A DNA stretch of 64,000 nt from Armatimonadota bacterium (lineage in GTDB: Bacteria > Armatimonadota > SYMT01): assembly GCA_041690135.1 (NCBI GenBank), contig JAWLHY010000001.1:896001-960000 (forward strand). Direction: 5' to 3'. Of the stretch, positions 924 through 29,975 are shown one piece after another; position 1 is the first letter of the stretch; each line of letters starts with the position of its first letter. Made by a program: the position numbers and the translations under genes. The notes beneath the pieces were generated by a model. That model did no database searches, was not told where the DNA came from, and saw nothing but the letters and a program-made list of their open reading frames with translations.

Positions 924-2066
924 TTACCCGGCGGTCGCGGAAGCCAAACCAGCGCCGGCCGGAGATGTTGCAGTCTCCGGGCGGGCCCGCGAAACTCCAG
1001 CCAACCCCATCAACCGGCTTCCCAGAAGGGAACGGGAGGCAATCAGCACGAGCAAGGCCGTGCCGCCGACGGTGCATCCCAGGAGTACGGCGAGGCGCAG
1101 TTCCAGGGAGGCGGCAGACAATTGCGGGAGGAAGTAGCGGAGCGCCAGCTCCAGGCAGAGCGGGTGAACCAGGTAGATGGCGTAGGACCTGGATGCGAGC
1201 ACGCGTCCGGGTGCATAAAGCCGCGTGGCTGCCAACCGGCAGGCGAGAAGCCACAGAAGCGGCAGGACCGCTACGGTGTAAAGAACCACCGCCGGGCGCC
1301 GGGAACCGGCCTCATTCAAGCCGAGGGGAGACTGGTAGTACTCCCAGAGCAGCCCCAGCGCGGCAGCGGCGGCCAGTGGTCCCCAGAGGCCCCGGTAGTG
1401 GGAGAGTTGCTCGACGATGGCGTTCCGATGCCTCGCCCCAAGCGTGCCGAGCAAGAAGTAGAAGAGCCATCCCGGCAACAGGCTATCGCTCGCATCCCAG
1501 AGGAAGGCGCTCCAGCCCAGGGGGCGTGGCGTGTAGGCAAAGTAGCCCTGATAGCCCAGCGTGAGTAAGAGCGAAGCTACCAGCCAGTGGAGCGCGCGCG
1601 GTCCGGTCACCGCTTTCCACACCCAGGGGAATACGGCGTAGAACTGGAGGACCATGGCGGCGAAGTAGAGGTGGCCCTGGCCGACCTGCCCCAGAACCAG
1701 TCCCAGGAAGTACTGGACAGTACCGACCGGCGGGCTGAATACGGCCGCGTAGACCAGCGCCCATGTGGCGAACGGCAGCCAGGCAGCAAACAGGCGCCGC
1801 TGCCGGAACTCGCGGGGATTCGGCGGCGAGGGATGGGTGAGCTGGAGCACGAAACCCGAGAGGACCGCGAACGTCGGCGTGGCCCAGAGCGCCAGTTGGT
1901 AGAACGGTTCCAGCCCCAGGAGAACTGTCGGGTCCGTGCTCCCCATCCGCGCAGCCGCCGCCAGCACGTGGATCATCACGATCGTGACGCACGCCAGGGC
2001 GCGGAGGAGGTCGGCCTCGGCGGCGCGCTCACGCGGCGCGGGCGGGGTCATCGCAGCAGCGCTCAC
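924..2066 (-). CDS. Acyltransferase family 3 (OafA/IcaC-like membrane O-acyltransferase)
   Basis: DLLRALACVTIVMIH, F..LSGF, HLYF..MVLQFY.VFP and SYAIYLVHP motifs; many hydrophobic helices. Confidence 0.85.
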   Translation of the reverse strand: MSAAAMTPPAPRERAAEADLLRALACVTIVMIHVLAAAARMGSTDPTVLLGLEPFYQLALWATPTFAVLSGFVLQLTHPSPPNPREFRQRRLFAAWLPFATWALVYAAVFSPPVGTVQYFLGLVLGQVGQGHLYFAAMVLQFYAVFPWVWKAVTGPRALHWLVASLLLTLGYQGYFAYTPRPLGWSAFLWDASDSLLPGWLFYFLLGTLGARHRNAIVEQLSHYRGLWGPLAAAAALGLLWEYYQSPLGLNEAGSRRPAVVLYTVAVLPLLWLLACRLAATRLYAPGRVLASRSYAIYLVHPLCLELALRYFLPQLSAASLELRLAVLLGCTVGGTALLVLIASRSLLGSRLMGLAGVSRARPETATSPAGAGLASATAG

Positions 2067-19723: not shown

Positions 19724-20344
19724 TTAGTGGGCCGCGTGCACGTCCACCAGCTCGACGTCGAAGATCAGGTCGGCGTTCCCCGGGATCGGGCCGCCCGGCG
19801 TGCCGGTTTCTCCGTAGCCTAGCTTGGAGGGGATCACGAGTTGGCGCTTCTCACCGACTTTCATCCCCTTGACGCCTTCATCCCACCCGGGGATCACGTT
19901 GCCCCGGCCCAGCGTGAAGTGGATCGGTTCGTTCCGGTCGAGCGAGCTATCGAACTTCTCGCCGTTGCTCTTCAGCCACCCGGTGTAATGGACGGCCACA
20001 TCCTGGCCCGGCTCGGCTACCTTGCCGTTCCCTTCCTTCAGCACGGCGTAGGCAAGTCCGCTCTCCGTGACCTGATACTTGGACGGGTCCACCTTCGCCC
20101 AGGGGCCATTGGGGACTTCGACTTTGCCACCGGACGCTGCCTTCTCGGTGCCATGGGCATCCTTATCCTCGGACGCAGCCTCCTCCGAACCATGGGATTC
20201 CGCGGGCGCGTTTCCTTCGCCCGGTGCGTTCGTCGAAGAGGCCGTTGGCGTCCCGTCGGTCGGCGCGGCCGCCTGCTCGCTCGGGCCGCAGCCCCCTACC
20301 GTGATCAACAGACCGGCCAGTGCCGGCGCAATGAACCAGCGCAT
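19724..20344 (-). CDS. FKBP-type peptidyl-prolyl isomerase (lipoprotein)
   Basis: [34 protein letters not shown]; lipobox VGGC. Confidence 0.93.
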
Positions 20345-21178
20345 TTACTTTTTGAGCTCCTCTGCTCGAATGAGATGGACATCGAAGACCAGGGTCGCGT
20401 TGGGCGGGATCGGCCCCCCCGGCGTCCCGGAATCCCCGTAACCCAGCTTGGCGGGAATGACGAGCTGGCGCTTCTCGCCCGGCTTCATTCCCTGCACCCC
20501 CTCGTCCCAGCCCGGAATCACCTGGCCTTGCCCGAGAGGGAATACAAAAGACTGCCCGCGGTCGATCGAGCTGTCGAATTTCTTGCCGTTGGTAAGCCAA
20601 CCCGTGTAGTGGACGGTGACAAGTTGCCCCTTCTTGGCGGCCTCACCCTTGCCCTCCGTCAGCACAGAGTACTTCAGGCCGCTCTTCGTGGTCTTCAGGT
20701 CCTTCTCGGCCACTTTGGCCGGTTTCTCGGCCGGCTCGAAAGTACCGACGATCTCGACCATCTCCACCTCGAACGTGAGGGTACTGTTGGCGGGGATCAA
20801 GCCGCCTCCGATCTCACGGTCACCGTAGGCGAGCTTGGGCGGGATGATCAATTGGCGCTTCTCGCCGGCCGTCATGCCCTGGAGACCTTCATCCCAGCCC
20901 GGAATGACCAGCCCGCGGCCCACGATCAATTCGAACGGGCGCTTGCGGCGGTGGGAGCTGTCGAACTCTTTGCCGCTATCCAGCCAACCGGTGTAATGCA
21001 CCAGCACCTGCTGGTTCTTCGCTACGGCCGGCCCGCTTCCGGGCTTCAACACCGCATATTTCAGGCCGCTTTCGGTGGTCTTCACGTTTTTCGCGTCTAC
21101 CTTGACCGGCTCCGCCCAGGCGGCCCCGGCGATCAGGAGCGCGGCCCCGATGAGCGGCGCTCGAACTGTTCGGATCAT
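20345..21178 (-). CDS. Secreted two-domain FKBP-type peptidyl-prolyl isomerase
   Basis: Signal peptide from ATG 21178; two copies of [19 protein letters not shown]. Confidence 0.92.
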   Translation of the reverse strand: MIRTVRAPLIGAALLIAGAAWAEPVKVDAKNVKTTESGLKYAVLKPGSGPAVAKNQQVLVHYTGWLDSGKEFDSSHRRKRPFELIVGRGLVIPGWDEGLQGMTAGEKRQLIIPPKLAYGDREIGGGLIPANSTLTFEVEMVEIVGTFEPAEKPAKVAEKDLKTTKSGLKYSVLTEGKGEAAKKGQLVTVHYTGWLTNGKKFDSSIDRGQSFVFPLGQGQVIPGWDEGVQGMKPGEKRQLVIPAKLGYGDSGTPGGPIPPNATLVFDVHLIRAEELKK

Positions 21179-21403
21179 CTGCAGTCTCCCGGCATTGCCC
21201 CGGATCCGGCCGCGGGCAGAAATGGGGTTGCGTTGGACAATTATGTTGCCTTTGGTGGCCTTCTGCCCGCACCTTCTACCGCTTCGGGACCCGCGATGGT
21301 TCCATTTCGCGCGTTTGGCTCCGGAGGTCAGGCAGGAACCCGCTTCTTTCCCGGAGTATGGTTGAGGGGCGATGCTCCGGGAACCTGCAACGAAGGGATG
21401 AGA

Positions 21404-23791: not shown

Positions 23792-24997
23792 TCAATCTTC
23801 CGCCGGAGGCGTTTTCGCCTGCACGGTGAACCCACCCACGGCTACAGGCCCCGTGAGCGTGAGCACGGGATCCCCTTCGATCTGGAGGTAAGCCGTATCG
23901 GGGCTCAGCCGGCTATTTCCGTTGTCGATGATCGTAAGCGTGAAGGCTCGGCCACGCACCCGGTTAACGGTCGCGACACCTGTAATCACTGCCCGGTTTC
24001 CGTTGAAGACTTCCACCGACTGGATGCGGGTACTCCGCACGTGGAGCCGTGCCCGCGGGTCCAGGAAGACAAAACTTCCCACCGGCTTCTTCCGCAGCGA
24101 GTTCGCGCGCACGTTGAAGATCGCCCGGTTCTCGCCGACCTGCAGGATCGAGTTGCCCGCGACCAGGCCCGGGAAGCCCGCCTCGGCCACCAGTTGATCC
24201 GAAACAAACCAACCGCCCTGTCCGTTGGGCGTGAAAACGATCGTCAGCCCCTCCAGGTCGGAGTCCTCGGGAACGTCAGCATCGATGTCGAAGTGCTCAT
24301 ACACGGTGCCCTCCGTGCCCGTGTTGAAGTTCCGGTTCGCCGACAGATCGATCTCCGCCGGAATGGTCGGCTCACCTGCCGCTCTTACCTCTTTCACCGG
24401 TCCCCCGCCGGGAAGATCGCCCGGCGTCACCCCAACCAGGATGTCATCGCCTCCGGAAGGGGCGTCGACGGTGGAGATGAGCACTCGTCCGTCCTGCAGG
24501 ATCTGGATCTGGAAGGTGTTGATGATACTTTCGTCGTCATAGGTGGGCACCTGCTCCCAGGTGAACACCGCACGGTCCGGGAAGAGGCGGTAACGCACGG
24601 CACCGCCGTCCCGCGGGTCCAGGTCGTGCCAGGCGCCGGCGATGCGGGGGCCTTCCGTTACGAATTCGAACGGATCGCCGTCACAGCAATCGTCGTCGTC
24701 GTTGTCGCCCAGCCAGATGAACCCGTTGTCGGTGACCGTCACCTGGGTGTAGACCTGCCCCTGGAACGGAAAGTTGAAGCCCAGGTCGATGAGCGCTGTA
24801 TCGTCATCTCCGAACTCCAGGTTGGTGCCCGTGTCAACTTCATAGTACGGGGGCAAGGGCACCTTAACGCCGGCTTCCGCCCGGCGGGGCTGTACCGCAC
24901 CGCTAAAAACCAACCCACCGAGCGCCGCACAAAGCACGCCCGTACCCAGGGCGCGCTTCGCCCCGGAACGCATCCACGAAGTCCTCTTCAGCAACAT
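23792..24997 (-). CDS. Secreted acidic protein with nidogen(NIDO)-like region and beta-rich C-terminal domain
   Basis: Signal peptide; LGFNFPF.G..YT.V.V..NGFI, IAGAWHDLDP, NTFQI.I..DG. Confidence 0.7.
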   Translation of the reverse strand: MLLKRTSWMRSGAKRALGTGVLCAALGGLVFSGAVQPRRAEAGVKVPLPPYYEVDTGTNLEFGDDDTALIDLGFNFPFQGQVYTQVTVTDNGFIWLGDNDDDDCCDGDPFEFVTEGPRIAGAWHDLDPRDGGAVRYRLFPDRAVFTWEQVPTYDDESIINTFQIQILQDGRVLISTVDAPSGGDDILVGVTPGDLPGGGPVKEVRAAGEPTIPAEIDLSANRNFNTGTEGTVYEHFDIDADVPEDSDLEGLTIVFTPNGQGGWFVSDQLVAEAGFPGLVAGNSILQVGENRAIFNVRANSLRKKPVGSFVFLDPRARLHVRSTRIQSVEVFNGNRAVITGVATVNRVRGRAFTLTIIDNGNSRLSPDTAYLQIEGDPVLTLTGPVAVGGFTVQAKTPPAED

Positions 24998-25218: not shown

Positions 25219-26574
25219 CTAGCGGTCGAAGTACGGGTAGTCAACCAGCACCCGCCGCAGCTCTTCGGCCGTGGTGTGGCCTTCGCGGACGAGCTTACGC
25301 CCGGCGTCCGGAAGCGAGCCCGTCTCTCCGGGGAACAGAGCCGCTCCCAGCAACCCGGTTGCCTCACCCGCCGTGATCTTTTTCCGCACTTCCTCGTCCA
25401 CTTCGACCATTTCATAGAAAGGGAGACGACCGTGATATCCGCTACCGGAGCAGGCGTCGCAGCCCGCACCCCGCAAGAAGGCCCCCCCACCCGGTTCCAG
25501 CCCCACCGATTGGAGCAACGCTGAGTCCGGGTCGTACTCGACGCGGCACTGCCGGCACGAGTGCCGGACCAGGCGCATGCCAATCAGCCCTATCAGTACC
25601 GATCCCAGTTGAAACCGGCTGGCGCCTGCTTCGCGGAGTTGTTCGAGGATTTGTAAAGCACTGGCGGCGGTCATCTGAGTCAGCACCAGATGTCCCGTGA
25701 CTGAAGTGCGAATCGCCAGGTCCAGGGTCTCCCGGTCCGGCAGATCCCCCACGAAGACCACATCCGGGTCGCAGCCCCGAAGCAGGTGGCGGAGCGCGGC
25801 GGCGAAGGAGAGGCCGCGGTCAACATCAACCTGGGTTTGCGAGAGCCCTTCCAGCCGGTAAGCGACCCGTTCCTCCAGAGTCATCAAGTTGGCTCCGCCC
25901 GCTTCCCGGTCCAGGAGGTGCTGGAGGATTCCGTAGATCAAGGTTGTCTTGCCGCTCCCGACGGGCCCCCCTACAACCAGGAGCCCATTCGGTTGCCGAA
26001 GAATCCGGTACAGCGTTTCGGTTTGACGAGGCGAAAGGTGCATCCGCTCCAACGGAGGAGGGCGCCTCTCAACCGGGACCATCCCGAGCGTCAGGTGCTC
26101 GCCGAAGACGGTAGGCATCACGGCCAAGCGCACGTCGTACTCTCCAGCCTGGTGAGGAACGATGAATCTTCCGGCTTGCGGTAGATCATGCCGCTCCAGG
26201 TCGCACTGAGCCAGCAGTTTGAACCGGTCGACCACCGGCTTCCATTCGTTGCGGGAAAGGGATGCGAAAGGCTCCAGGCGGCCGTCGATCCGGAAGGAGA
26301 TAGCAAGCTCGGACCGGCGGGGCGCCAGGTGGATATCCGTAGCTCCCTGCTGAAGGGCGTCCTGGAGGAGCGAGTGGGCCAACCGGACGATACTCGCTTC
26401 TCGGGCTCCTTCCAGCGTCTCCAGCACTTCCCGTTCCCGACGCACCTCCTCGCGTAGCCGGGGATCCGTGGTGAGCAGCCCTTCGAAGGCTTCCAGTTCG
26501 GCTCCCGCAAGCTCACCGCGAAAGAACGGCAGAATATTCTCTCGAGCCCATTCCGGATCAAGCTGGCGCTTCAT
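25219..26574 (-). CDS. Anti-sigma-like N-terminal domain fused to a degenerate GspE/PilB-family ATPase
   Basis: GATDIHL.P, FRIDG, GPVGSGKTT, DPDVVFVG, TGHLVL, CRQC..CDAC zinc motif, GHTT.EEL.RV; N-terminus ILPFFRGEL...E...FE..L...P..REEV. Confidence 0.85.
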   Translation of the reverse strand: MKRQLDPEWARENILPFFRGELAGAELEAFEGLLTTDPRLREEVRREREVLETLEGAREASIVRLAHSLLQDALQQGATDIHLAPRRSELAISFRIDGRLEPFASLSRNEWKPVVDRFKLLAQCDLERHDLPQAGRFIVPHQAGEYDVRLAVMPTVFGEHLTLGMVPVERRPPPLERMHLSPRQTETLYRILRQPNGLLVVGGPVGSGKTTLIYGILQHLLDREAGGANLMTLEERVAYRLEGLSQTQVDVDRGLSFAAALRHLLRGCDPDVVFVGDLPDRETLDLAIRTSVTGHLVLTQMTAASALQILEQLREAGASRFQLGSVLIGLIGMRLVRHSCRQCRVEYDPDSALLQSVGLEPGGGAFLRGAGCDACSGSGYHGRLPFYEMVEVDEEVRKKITAGEATGLLGAALFPGETGSLPDAGRKLVREGHTTAEELRRVLVDYPYFDR

Positions 26575-27142
26575 CTCCTTGATGTCCTTCCTCTGCATCC
26601 AGAGCATCCACGGCGCGCCGCAGCCGGCGGAGCGCTTCCGACATCCGCGACTTGACCGTCCCGAGCGGAATGCCGAGTTGCGCGGCGACCTCGGCATAGC
26701 TCATTTCTTCAAACTGACAGAGCTCAAAAACCACCCTGTACCGGGCGGGGAGCTCCGAGACCGCACTTAGCAGGTGATGGAGGCGGTCCCGGCCCAACGC
26801 AACGGCCTGCGGGTCCCGGGAAGCAAAGGCTGTTTCCGCCATTGCTTCCTCCAACCGGACCGGCGAAGGGTCCCGGCGGAACTTCTTCCGCTGGTTCCAC
26901 CAGAAGTGGCGGGCAATCTGAAACAAGTAAGCCGAGAAACTACCCGACGGTTCATAGCGCTCCCGGGTCCGCCACAGGCGAAATAGAGTTTCCTGGGTGT
27001 AGTCGTCCGCAAGAGACCGGTCGGCAAGCAAGGAAGCGAAGAACCGTTGGAGCGGTTCCCGGTGGCGGGCAGTGAGTTCGCGGAAGGCCGTTACGTCCCC
27101 CTCCCGGACTCGCAGCATCAGTTCGATGTCGGTTGGCTCCAT
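26558..27142 (-). CDS. ECF RNA polymerase sigma factor
   Basis: Region 2 ADDYTQETLFRLW..SFSAYLFQIARH; region 4 LP..R.VF.L....MSYAEVA..LGIPLGTVKSR. Confidence 0.95.
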   Translation of the reverse strand: MEPTDIELMLRVREGDVTAFRELTARHREPLQRFFASLLADRSLADDYTQETLFRLWRTRERYEPSGSFSAYLFQIARHFWWNQRKKFRRDPSPVRLEEAMAETAFASRDPQAVALGRDRLHHLLSAVSELPARYRVVFELCQFEEMSYAEVAAQLGIPLGTVKSRMSEALRRLRRAVDALDAEEGHQGDEAPA

Positions 27143-27216
27143 GCGTGGCGATCCCGTTCCCTCATGCTCCTTAGTTCTCGCCCGCACGCAAAGTTCGATA
27201 CCGTTAACCGGAAATC

Positions 27217-28026
27217 TTGAGAAAGGCGTACCTCTTGCCTGCCAATTCCTCGAAAGTCGTGTTGATCACTGGCGCCAGCAGCGGGCTGGGGGCCGCCGCT
27301 GCCCAGGCGTGTGCCGCCGCCGGGCATCGCGTCGTGCTGGCCGCCCGCCGCATGGATCGTCTCCAACAGGTTGCCGATGCCATTGGCCGCTCCGAAAATG
27401 TCTTGCTGATTCCCACCGACATCCGCAGTCTCGAGAGCATTCAAGCCATGGTGCGGATTGCCGAGGAGCGGTTCGGACAGATCGACGTCCTGGTAGCCAA
27501 CGCCGGGGTCGGTAAGTGGGAGCCGCTACACGATAGCAACGAGGACACGCTCCTCTGGCAGATGGACGTAAACGTGTTGGGCGTGGTCCGGTGTGCCCGC
27601 GAGGTGCTGCCAGGAATGCTCCAGCGGAAGAGCGGACACATCATCACCGTCGCCTCCGTAGCCGGAGAGATCCCCTCCGCGGGGACTTCCATCTACTCGG
27701 CGACCAAGGCCGCGGTGATTGGATTTTCCGAGGGACTGCGCCGCGAGGTGGAAGCGTCCGGCGTCCGGGTCACCTGCATTCAGCCCGGGTTCATTCAGAG
27801 CGAGATGACCGAGGGGAACCCTTTCCCAATGCCGCCGGCTTCCGTCGTAGGGGATCTCGTGGTGCGGCTCATCCGGCGGCCGGTACGACGCGCGGTGGTC
27901 CCCCGCTGGTATGGCGCCGGGATCTGGCTCAACCGTTTTCTCCCGGCCTGGATCGATCTCATCGCCTGGAGCATGCATCAGAGGATCGCCGATCATGCTA
28001 AGGAACGTGGCGCTTCCGAGTCGTAG
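27217..28026 (+). CDS. SDR family oxidoreductase
   Basis: ITGASSGLG, ANAG, YSATK. Confidence 0.9.
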   Translation: MRKAYLLPANSSKVVLITGASSGLGAAAAQACAAAGHRVVLAARRMDRLQQVADAIGRSENVLLIPTDIRSLESIQAMVRIAEERFGQIDVLVANAGVGKWEPLHDSNEDTLLWQMDVNVLGVVRCAREVLPGMLQRKSGHIITVASVAGEIPSAGTSIYSATKAAVIGFSEGLRREVEASGVRVTCIQPGFIQSEMTEGNPFPMPPASVVGDLVVRLIRRPVRRAVVPRWYGAGIWLNRFLPAWIDLIAWSMHQRIADHAKERGASES

Positions 28027-28157: not shown

Positions 28158-29975
28158 GTGGACATAAGAAGAGCGGACAACCCGGATAGGAAGGACGGCA
28201 GGGTCACCCTTGGGGCCTCGGGCCTAGAAGGGTGCCGGCTCCGGCAACCGTGGCTCAAGACACTGGGCGCCCTTGCCTGGGGGCTCATGCTCTCCGGATG
28301 CGGAAAAGGGCTGCCTGGTTCGCCGCCTTCCTCCCCCCTTCGCTTCACCGCCCTCGGTCCCGAGACGGGGGTTACCTTTCGGCACGATGCCGGCGCGGAC
28401 GGATCGCAGCAGCTCCATCAACAGTTGGGGGGAGGGTGCGCCGTCTTCGATTTCAATAACGACGGCTGGCTCGATCTCTACTTCGTGCAGGGTGCCCCAC
28501 CCACCGGAGATGGCCAGGACCCCCGTTGGAGCAACCGCCTCTATCAGGGCGGCCCTGGGTGGCGATTCACGGATGTCACGGATCGGGCCGGGGTTGCGGG
28601 CCGCATTGGTACCGGCAAATCCTTTGGCGTTGGCTGTGCCGTCGGCGACTGGGATCGGGACGGCGATGAGGATCTACTCGTCACCACGCGAGACGGCATC
28701 CTCTTCTATGGCAATCAGGGTGACGGTACGTTCCGTGACGAGAGCGTGAATGCCGGGCTGCCGCAAGAGGGGTTCTGGACGAGTGCCACCTTCCTGGACT
28801 TTGACCGCGACGGCTGGCTGGATCTCTACCTCTGCCGGTACACGCCGCCCGGAGCAAAGACCAACACTCCGCCGGCCTCCGCCGGTTCCAAGCCGACTCC
28901 GGATTCGGAAAATCCGGCGCGGACGACCTCACGGCTCTACCGCAATGTGGGGGGGCAGGTGTTTCGGGACGTTACCGCGGAGGCCGGCACGCTGGAGCCG
29001 AACAGTCACGCCCTGGGGGTCCTGGCCAGTGACCTTGACGGAGACGGTTGGCCCGACCTTTGCGTCACCAACGACGGAGTGCGCAACTTCCTCTTCCGCA
29101 ATGACCGTGGGGTCTTTCTGGAACGGGGGCGTGATGCGGGCGTGGCGGTGGACGAGTCGGGGGTGGCCCGTCCCAGCCGGGGCCTTTGCGGAGCCGACGT
29201 TAACGGTGATCTGGCTCCCGACCTGTTTTTGACTACCGGAGAACGCCATCCTAACTTACTCTTCCTCGGCGGGAATGATCTAACCCTAAAGGAAGGCGCG
29301 GCTGCGGCGGGACTGTCGCCCGACACCTCCATGTCCGCGTGGGGCTCCGCTTTCGCCGACTTCGATCTCGACGGTCGGACCGATCTGGTGGTGCTGGGAG
29401 GTGCGTCCCAGCAAGCGGTTGGCGCGGGTTCGGCAGCGGGCGGTGCGCAGCGTCCCCGGCTCTACCGGGGTGAGGGCGGCGGCATGTTCCGGTCGGCCGG
29501 GGAACAGGCGGGGTCCTGGTTCCGGGAAGCGCACGATGGGCGCGGGATCGCAACCGGTGACCTGGATCAGGATGGGGACCTGGACCTGGTCGTAACGCGT
29601 CTGAACGGTACGCCGGTCCTGCTTCGCAACGACCACCGAGCGAAGAACCACTGGCTCCAGCTACGCCTAGTGGGGACCGAGAGCAATCTCTCCGGGATCG
29701 GGGCTCGGGTGACGGCTATCGTGGATGGCCAGCCACGCATGGCAGAGGCCCGCTCCGGGGCCGGCTATCTCTGCGCGCAGAGCCCTACCGTCGCTTTCGG
29801 CCTGGGCACTGCGCAGGCCCTGGACGGTCTGGAAGTTCGCTGGCCCTCCGGGGCGGTGGACGCGCTTCCGCCCGTGCTCGGCGACCGGGTCATCATCCTG
29901 AAGGAAGGCGGCGACCTTCTGCCCACTCCGACCTCTTCTGCAGAACCCCAGGCACGTGGCAGTCTGAAGCGCTAG
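28158..29975 (+). CDS. CRTAC1-family FG-GAP/ASPIC-UnbV protein
   Basis: Repeated DxDxDGxxDL motifs; C-terminal N..GIGARV...GAGYL.....FGLG....LEVRWPSG. Start uncertain. Confidence 0.9.
   Translation: MDIRRADNPDRKDGRVTLGASGLEGCRLRQPWLKTLGALAWGLMLSGCGKGLPGSPPSSPLRFTALGPETGVTFRHDAGADGSQQLHQQLGGGCAVFDFNNDGWLDLYFVQGAPPTGDGQDPRWSNRLYQGGPGWRFTDVTDRAGVAGRIGTGKSFGVGCAVGDWDRDGDEDLLVTTRDGILFYGNQGDGTFRDESVNAGLPQEGFWTSATFLDFDRDGWLDLYLCRYTPPGAKTNTPPASAGSKPTPDSENPARTTSRLYRNVGGQVFRDVTAEAGTLEPNSHALGVLASDLDGDGWPDLCVTNDGVRNFLFRNDRGVFLERGRDAGVAVDESGVARPSRGLCGADVNGDLAPDLFLTTGERHPNLLFLGGNDLTLKEGAAAAGLSPDTSMSAWGSAFADFDLDGRTDLVVLGGASQQAVGAGSAAGGAQRPRLYRGEGGGMFRSAGEQAGSWFREAHDGRGIATGDLDQDGDLDLVVTRLNGTPVLLRNDHRAKNHWLQLRLVGTESNLSGIGARVTAIVDGQPRMAEARSGAGYLCAQSPTVAFGLGTAQALDGLEVRWPSGAVDALPPVLGDRVIILKEGGDLLPTPTSSAEPQARGSLKR

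Follow-up and report, generated by a model that had tools for sequence, protein, structure and literature searches.

An ECF sigma factor gene of an Armatimonadota bacterium overlaps the gene of a putative soluble anti-sigma factor with a PilB/GspE-type ATPase body

Genes and domains at the locus

The stretch of DNA analysed here (the window) comprises 64,000 nucleotides of an Armatimonadota genome (assembly GCA_041690135.1, contig JAWLHY010000001.1, positions 896,001 to 960,000). Two overlapping genes on its reverse strand are the subject of this analysis. The first encodes an extracytoplasmic function (ECF) sigma factor, and the second encodes a fusion protein in which a short N-terminal domain resembling class I anti-sigma domains (ASDIs) precedes the N2 and ATPase domains of a PilB/GspE-type ATPase (Table 1). 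ECF sigma factors together with their anti-sigma factors are a major signalling system of bacteria. The explanation that best fits the locus, with a probability of roughly 70%, is that the fusion protein is a cytoplasmic anti-sigma factor that holds the co-encoded sigma factor through a zinc-less class I domain and whose PilB/GspE-derived body is the sensor. An earlier reading of the locus, made from the letters without database searches (the sequence-only reading), had likewise proposed a soluble anti-sigma factor with a repurposed pilus or secretion motor. The computational evidence on domain homology, gene pairing, solubility, and the missing platform gene agrees with it.

Table 1. Features of the sigma/fusion locus, in coordinates of the window
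Feature	Position	Strand	Basis
Putative autoregulated ECF-type promoter, GAACTTT-12 nt-GAACTAA	27171-27196	-	Motif comparison, pattern search
ECF (group 4) sigma factor, 194 aa	26558-27142	-	Pfam, NCBIfam
Sigma-2 region of the sigma factor	26882-27070	-	Pfam Sigma70_r2
Sigma-4 region of the sigma factor	26621-26773	-	Pfam Sigma70_r4_2
Soluble fusion protein, 451 aa (anti-sigma-like domain + PilB/GspE N2 + ATPase)	25219-26574	-	Pfam, NCBIfam, AlphaFold2 model
N-terminal anti-sigma-like domain, residues 1-57	26404-26574	-	hhalign, profile search, weak Pfam/NCBIfam matches
N2 domain of PilB/GspE fold, residues 58-175	26050-26403	-	Pfam, structure match, model
C-terminal ATPase domain, residues 176-451	25222-26049	-	Pfam, structure match, model, motif alignment
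Walker A GPVGSGKT, residues 203-210, intact	25945-25968	-	Motif alignment
GDLPD, residues 276-280, at the GE-RD position (Glu to Asp, Arg to Pro)	25735-25749	-	Motif alignment; alignment to PilF
Degenerate His box TGHLVLTQMTA, residues 293-303, second His to Thr	25666-25698	-	Motif alignment
Tetracysteine motif C340, C343, C372, C375, kept	25450-25557	-	Motif alignment
C-terminal motif LVDYP (family consensus LFDYP)	25234-25248	-	Family alignment

The sigma factor matched Sigma70_r2 (E 3.3e-12) and Sigma70_r4_2 (E 4.1e-18) in Pfam and otherwise nothing of substance. In other words, it consists of sigma-2 and sigma-4 only, which is the domain content of ECF (group 4) sigma factors. It scored 89.4 bits against the NCBIfam sigma70-ECF model TIGR02937, whose cut-off is 42.9. 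The best NCBIfam match besides this superfamily model was PRK12513, at 119.3 bits and below its cut-off of 206. The closest solved structures are those of AlgU, SigW, sigma-E, RpoE, and SigK, each of which is under the control of a class I anti-sigma factor.

The fusion gene starts at an ATG at 26574, and the stop codon of the sigma gene ends at 26558, so that the two genes overlap by the 17 bp that the sequence-only reading had reported. In a public annotation (P0003, 459 aa), the protein begins eight codons earlier, at an ATG at 26598, which would extend the overlap to 41 bp. The alignment of orthologues places their start sites near 26574. The Pfam family T2SSE (PF00437) spans residues 58-441 of the fusion protein with an E-value of 4.1e-76 (256.5 bits against a cut-off of 24.9), as expected of a protein whose residues 60-451 had been taken for a PilB/GspE-type region. 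The N-terminal T2SSE_N/MshEN family (PF05157) that had been said to be missing gave no Pfam match in the fusion protein. The protein is soluble and has no transmembrane helix, again as had been claimed: its highest Kyte-Doolittle mean over 19 residues is 1.29, compared to 1.99-2.65 in four membrane anti-sigma factors used as controls.

An AlphaFold2 model built on a 50-row alignment is globular, with a mean predicted local distance difference test (pLDDT) score of 93.5. The modelled helices cover residues 7-18 and 24-36, followed by a single long helix from 38 to 75. The third helix of the anti-sigma-like domain is therefore continuous with the first helix of N2 in this model. At the other end of the protein, the LFDYP motif is distinctive of the family. 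L443, D445, and Y446 are invariant in all 14 aligned members, and the motif is missing from the two canonical sequences in another alignment. The last block of the model, where the LFDYP tail sits, has pLDDT values down to 48. The motif may be a short docking or degradation signal.

Homology of the N-terminal domain to class I anti-sigma domains

The N-terminal domain was compared with known families by means of an alignment of the first 58-67 residues of 14 family members. E21, F30, E31, L34, L40, R41, and R48 are invariant in this alignment. The mean pairwise identity of the domain (0.435) is as high as that of the ATPase body (0.41-0.43). A profile of the alignment matched 802 of 1.84 billion representative proteins at E<=0.001, and 24 of these at E<=1e-10. 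Among the best 149 matches, zf-HC2 was found in 62 (best 1.1e-28), T2SSE in 26, RseA_N in 3, and RskA_C in 2. In the matched proteins that lack the ATPase, the match was mostly N-terminal and in many of them a hydrophobic stretch lay behind it.

A direct comparison of profiles gave the same picture. Thirteen zinc anti-sigma domains were picked by Pfam, independently, in the same genome. The N-domain profile aligned with them in hhalign at a probability of 94.5% (E 7.9e-8) over 51 columns, and the two share a GEL motif. In this register, L33, D37, and L40 fall on the positions of the His and the two Cys that ligate zinc. The Hx3Cx2C zinc motif is absent from the window copy, in which these residues are substituted. 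The complete C...Hx3Cx2C motif is present ahead of the ATPase in two fused relatives (P0191 and P0165). Both the hhalign register and these relatives agree with an earlier assignment of L/D/L to the HxxxCxxC ligand positions. The motif is not obligatory in this class, as ~56% of ASDIs have it by the figure given in the ASDI passages of PMC7406223.

Single sequences give weaker signals of the same kind. When each of the 14 N-domains was searched on its own against Pfam at E<=10, zf-HC2 (PF13490) was weakly matched by 8 of them (best E 0.00053), and every other family was matched by at most 3. The N-domain of the window copy has two weak anti-sigma matches in NCBIfam (E 0.0074 and 0.037), both in the correct N-terminal register. 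The Pfam check that had been proposed for residues 1-60 came out negative for the window copy and weakly positive, with zf-HC2, for 8 of the 14 family members. Taken together, the searches indicate that residues ~8-57 are homologous, at the profile level, to class I anti-sigma domains, which is the N-terminus that the sequence-only reading had claimed.

A different origin of the N-domain, as a degenerate N1/MshEN domain, was considered and rejected. When hhalign was run against 24 canonical PilB/GspE proteins with N1/MshEN, it gave a probability of 1%, and only the junction with N2 aligned.

Inheritance of the sigma and fusion genes as a unit

The fusion was searched for in a phylum sample of 401 genomes, a family (f7) of 42 genomes, and three orders of 68, 3, and 71 genomes, altogether 434 genomes. 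The queries were the fusion protein itself or family profiles. Ten of these genomes encode a full-length fusion (G000, G027, G198, G225, G260, G383, G388, G402, G405, and G406), and they represent at least four families of the phylum. The fusion proteins scored 521-729 bits and were matched from position 2-4 of the profile; canonical ATPases scored no more than ~477 bits and were matched only from about position 36-52.

In all 10 fusion genomes, an orthologous sigma gene lies directly upstream on the same strand, and its product is 41-56% identical to that of the window. The spacing between the sigma stop and the ATPase start ranges from an overlap to a 2-bp gap, except in G260; the sigma gene is interrupted in G388, and in G198 it is cut off by the end of the contig. 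In G260, the two genes are separated by a 370-bp gap that holds an open reading frame (ORF) of ~106 aa with no Pfam family (L115:1145-1465, +). The pairing that the sequence-only reading had proposed to look for is thus conserved in 10 of 10 fusion genomes, whereas none of 23 canonical PilB/GspE loci of the same family has a sigma gene within its 1.5-kb flanks. More evidence comes from one order, in which 68 genomes were searched. Sigma matches scoring 168-318 bits were confined to the 7 genomes that bear the fusion and always lay at the fusion locus; the best sigma elsewhere in this order scored 152.5 bits. Because high-scoring sigma factors occur only at fusion loci, the sigma and the fusion are taken to be inherited as a unit, though patchily. 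The ORFs flanking the module vary among the loci listed. The module thus looks like two genes, because its flanking genes differ between loci.

Searches outside these genomes added little. In six other genomes of the GTDB family of the window genome, no orthologue was found, and the best match was 39% identical. A scan of genome contigs with the protein gave 91 pattern matches and one confirmed locus, an unrelated ATPase with 26% identity. A metagenome scan, from which 80 of 145 loci were kept, gave one orthologue (L026). Of these 80 loci, one (L101) has a sigma-like ORF, which is ~5 kb away from the ATPase. Another metagenome locus (L027) was taken up as a candidate orthologue and discarded, as it proved to encode a canonical PilB of 550 aa. 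One NCBI copy of the fusion protein is labelled Armatimonadota. All the public source names examined for the fusion proteins are GspE/PulE/PilB-like.

How did the family arise? In a FastTree phylogeny of the last 395 residues, 27 fused proteins lie on one side of a branch with a Shimodaira-Hasegawa-like support of 99, and 45 canonical proteins lie on the other. The members with the zinc motif are basal when the tree is rooted by midpoint. With this provisional root, the tree is compatible with a single ancient event that joined a zinc anti-sigma domain to the ATPase, the ligands being lost afterwards.

The position of the fusion gene is the usual slot of an anti-sigma gene, and it is shared with the ordinary zf-HC2 genes of the genome, which by their coordinates lie mostly shortly downstream of a Sigma70_r4_2 match. 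The genome (G000) has 60 Sigma70_r4_2 matches and 16 zf-HC2 matches.

An ATPase body with relaxed catalytic motifs

The body of the fusion protein is close to solved motor ATPases. PilF (6f8l/5oiu), GspE (4pht/1p9r), and PilB (5tsg) are its closest solved chains, with E-values of 1e-60 to 1e-70. It fell far short of the cut-offs of four NCBIfam equivalogs, with 302.6 bits against 630.25 for GspE, 263.1 against 675.65 for PilB, 238.3 against 850 for TfpB, and 168.3 against 300 for ComGA. Going by the motif alignment, the region is complete as a fold and catalytically incomplete in the window copy. The sequence-only reading had described a complete PilB/GspE N2 and ATPase region. This stands for the fold and fails for the catalytic motifs (GDLPD and the lost second His), and "complete" has to be qualified because the catalytic Glu and Arg and the second His of the His box are replaced.

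The same relaxation is seen across the family when 28 members are compared with 60 canonical sequences. The Walker A lysine is present in 100% of the canonical sequences and 85% of the family, the Glu of GE-RD in 100% and 53%, the Arg of GE-RD in 100% and 46%, the first His of the His box in 100% and 67%, and the second in 100% and 53%. Among the canonical sequences, the G of GE-RD is present in 100% and the D in 96%. All four cysteines are found in 24 of the 28 family members. One clade (G260/P0134) lost the lysine of the P-loop; in two of its proteins (P0131 and P0134), Walker A reads GSGRN or GSARN. The pattern of motifs is that of a fold retained for binding or conformational change and not for sustained hydrolysis.

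PilB/GspE-type ATPases are hexameric machines that perform mechanical work. Is the body still a motor? One explanation is that the fusion protein is a working pilus or secretion motor whose platform is encoded elsewhere, that the role of the sigma factor is limited to the transcription of its gene, and that the N-domain descends from an anti-sigma domain but has become an adaptor and lost the ability to bind sigma. The full-length T2SSE domain with its Walker A motif and four cysteines would suit a motor, and some members (P0128, P0154, and P0191) have canonical GE-RD and His boxes. The genome (9.1 Mb in 25 contigs) has 16 T2SSE and 13 T2SSF matches, and therefore platform proteins elsewhere. 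However, residues that are universal in canonical motors are kept by about half of the family and are replaced in the window copy. There is also no pilC/gspF gene near the fusion gene, as had been noted before: ~349 kb separate it from the closest T2SSF match on the contig. Four of the genome's canonical ATPases, by contrast, adjoin a T2SSF gene. Furthermore, a mere member of the regulon would need neither overlapping frames nor to be inherited so strictly together with a single sigma lineage, and the N-domain is as conserved as the ATPase body. This explanation is improbable. Most likely, the body has ceased to act together with the platform of a pilus or secretion system.

Another explanation makes the fusion protein a positive or active partner of the sigma factor and not a passive factor that sequesters it. 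It could, for instance, use ATP to load, release, or protect the sigma factor or to strip another inhibitor from it. The P-loop is kept in most members (Lys in 85%), and the ~106-aa ORF between the two genes of G260 could be a second regulator. Against this, the extra ORF occurs in only 1 of the 10 genomes, and a need for hydrolysis is doubtful, given the relaxed catalytic residues and the loss of the Walker A lysine in the G260/P0134 clade. In addition, every characterised class I domain treated in the relevant parts of PMC7406223 and PMC8999054 is inhibitory. A positive or active role is improbable on these grounds. The preferred explanation, that of an anti-sigma factor with a sensor of motor origin, accommodates both the conserved N-domain and the relaxed motifs.

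A putative autoregulated promoter

A candidate ECF-type promoter lies 54 nt ahead of the sigma ATG. By eye, related loci have a similar arrangement upstream of the sigma gene, GAACC(T/A)TT followed after ~12 nt by (A/G)AC(C/T)-TAT, located 54-97 nt before the start. A loose regular expression for this motif matched 6 of 9 upstream regions; among 957 control windows taken from these loci, 6 matched. A strict pattern had a single match in the 9.1-Mb genome, namely the site at 27171-27196, and a control pattern had none. The shared motif fits an autoregulated ECF promoter, and the two-gene module is probably autoregulated. A look-up of sequencing runs listed none with RNA and three with small shares (0.06-0.09).

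A stricter pattern was used in G260, G388, and G402. It gave 7 sites, compared to 0 for the control, and 3 of the sites are the operon promoters. Three others have a distinct -10 element (CGTCTATAC or TGTCTATAC) and precede a tiny ORF, behind which no clear gene was seen at the two of these sites that were checked; none of the three was counted as a target. The seventh (G388 contig C9, L140) lies 35 nt before an ORF of at least 455 aa; it has a different -10 region and was not counted as a target.

Three sites in G260 and G388 (L141, L144, and L145; positions 1501-1531, minus strand) have the form GAACCTTT-N17-(C/T)GTCTATAC, and the sequence behind each of them is conserved over a stretch. At 2 of the 3 sites, this includes a clear tiny ORF (MFHPSRSP), and behind the two sites that were examined further there is no clear protein gene. 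These sites could mark a small RNA or a leader under a related ECF promoter.

Proposed mechanism and points against it

How might a motor-derived protein control a sigma factor? We infer that the fusion protein binds and inhibits the sigma factor and that a signal releases it. In the mechanism proposed here, the first ~57 residues, a class I domain without zinc, would keep the partner sigma factor in an inactive state. A change in the clamp formed by N2 and the ATPase domain would shift the sigma-binding surface and thereby release the sigma factor. Such a clamp change would be a natural route to release, given that the model shows no break between the third helix of the anti-sigma-like domain and the first of N2. 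The trigger might be the binding of a nucleotide to the retained P-loop, oligomerisation, or the docking of a partner.

A more elaborate version, which we regard as rather unlikely, is that the body forms a hexameric pseudo-motor. Several copies of the sigma factor would be stored on a ring of anti-sigma heads and released when the ring changes its state. The trigger in this version could be the ATP/ADP level of the cell, read through the retained P-loop, or docking of the ATPase body to the platform of a type IV pilus or of a type II secretion system. If docking to a platform is the trigger, transcription would depend on how far a surface machine has been assembled. A coupling of this sort is known from FlgM, whose export couples sigma-28 to flagellar assembly. 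If the pseudo-motor version is true, a secretion ATPase fold has been turned into a device for transcription signalling.

Several observations weigh against the preferred explanation of a cytoplasmic anti-sigma factor with a PilB/GspE-derived sensor. The N-domain of the window copy matches no Pfam family even at E<=10, and its homology rests on profiles because the window sequence alone reaches no Pfam threshold. When solved structures were searched by sequence with the profile of the N-domain, 25 weak matches came up at E<=10, with no anti-sigma factor among them; the matches include V-ATPase subunit D, designed helical proteins, and ferritin. The helix pattern is also not fully that of the class. 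Class I domains, as described in the structural passages of PMC7406223, have three helices that bind sigma-4 and, behind a flexible linker, a fourth helix that binds sigma-2. In the fusion protein, the canonical fourth helix is not evident because its position is that of the first N2 helix, which the model draws within the unbroken helix 38-75.

Some loci depart from the conserved pair as well. In G388, the sigma gene is interrupted by an in-frame stop and then a frame change while the fusion gene is intact (L114:768-1501, +); the interruption is either gene decay or an assembly error. On the metagenome contig L026, which encodes a 42% identical protein with the same N-domain, no sigma gene is present in the 188 bp upstream, where stops occur in all frames. 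A more distant sigma gene is possible there because the contig ends 188 bp upstream. In addition, pattern searches of the window genome, G260, G388, and G402 identified no targets beyond the operon. Finally, the family is small, all its members come from uncultured genomes or metagenomes, and its related members are not independent of one another. It might be suspected from the 25-contig assembly with its 4% estimated contamination, and from the one related contig without an adjoining sigma gene, that the two genes came together by chance or through an error of assembly or gene calling in one metagenome-assembled genome. This can be dismissed, as the arrangement recurs in 10 genomes of at least four families against 0 of 23 control loci and the fused frame occurs as single proteins in several independent sources.

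Comparison with known systems

Judged by analogy, the fusion protein would function most similarly to ChrR and other soluble class I anti-sigma factors with a C-terminal sensor. The portions of PMC8999054 and PMC7406223 that deal with soluble factors describe ChrR, a zinc-binding anti-sigma (ZAS) domain with a cupin that acts on RpoE, and also RsrA/RshA. The likeness to ChrR as described there lies in an N-terminal zf-HC2-type domain, the absence of a membrane span, a gene directly after the one for the ECF sigma, and a soluble domain following. Unlike in these factors, the C-terminal part here is a PilB/GspE N2 and ATPase region where they have a cupin or just a zinc-thiol switch. In place of the zinc ligands, L/D/L is found here, while two basal relatives keep the ligands. 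The position of the fourth helix merges with the first N2 helix without a visible linker.

With PilB, GspE, and PilF, the fusion protein shares the N2 domain, the C-terminal ATPase fold, Walker A, and the tetracysteine motif. It differs from them in that an anti-sigma-like domain takes the place of N1/MshEN, in its own LFDYP motif, in the relaxed GE-RD and His box, and in having no pilC/gspF neighbour. A regulatory module fused N-terminally to a T2SSE ATPase is also known from MshE, since the MshEN N-domain of MshE/PilB binds cyclic di-GMP according to the text on this domain in PMC12943098. There, the motor is under the control of an N-domain that senses a ligand. The N-domain of the fusion protein has no homology to MshEN. 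The direction is probably reversed relative to MshE, as the ATPase body would regulate what the N-domain holds.

Nucleotide-binding anti-sigma factors as such are not new. SpoIIAB and RsbW have a GHKL kinase fold and act on group 3 sigma factors by partner switching, without an ASDI. The likeness is a functional analogy only, in that a cytoplasmic anti-sigma factor would have a grip on its sigma factor that depends on nucleotide. Their fold is unrelated, and the fusion protein has no HATPase_c match in Pfam.

Among known soluble anti-sigma factors, the overview in PMC8999054 names redox sensing, partner switching, and a mechanosensing complex. A full-text literature search returned no description of an anti-sigma domain fused to a T2SSE/PilB/GspE ATPase. 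A term search of the main texts of PMC7826278, PMC7406223, and PMC8999054 gave no mention of T2SSE or of a pilus, and the supplementary context tables of PMC7826278 might list the pairing. The sole ATPase mentioned in these main texts is in the phrase "AAA ATPases (ECF257)" (PMC8999054). The sequence-only reading knew of no described ECF group with this architecture, and none came to light in the literature searched. Within this literature, the combination of an anti-sigma domain with a secretion ATPase was not found described and would be a new type of sigma switch.

If the preferred explanation is true, a conserved lineage adds a new type of input to ECF signalling, and the fold of a motor ATPase has been recruited for signalling while its catalytic motifs were being relaxed. 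Genome surveys would count the copies as components of pili or secretion systems, because they are labelled only as GspE/PulE/PilB-like. The module is compact and consists of a promoter, a sigma factor of 194 aa, and a partner of 451 aa.

Neighbouring genes in the window

The gene that follows the fusion gene on the same strand, 221 bp downstream (23792-24997, minus strand), encodes a 401-aa protein. It has an N-terminal hydrophobic stretch that looks by eye like a signal peptide, and its sole Pfam match is a weak one to NIDO (E 0.00015, below the cut-off). Further along (19724-21240, minus strand) are two adjacent genes whose products appear, by eye, to be FKBP-type peptidyl-prolyl isomerases with lipoprotein or signal starts. 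On the other side of the module, a short-chain dehydrogenase/reductase (SDR) gene (27217-28026) diverges from the sigma promoter region. It adjoins a gene (28158-29975, plus strand) for a protein of 605 aa that has FG-GAP repeats and an ASPIC/UnbV domain.

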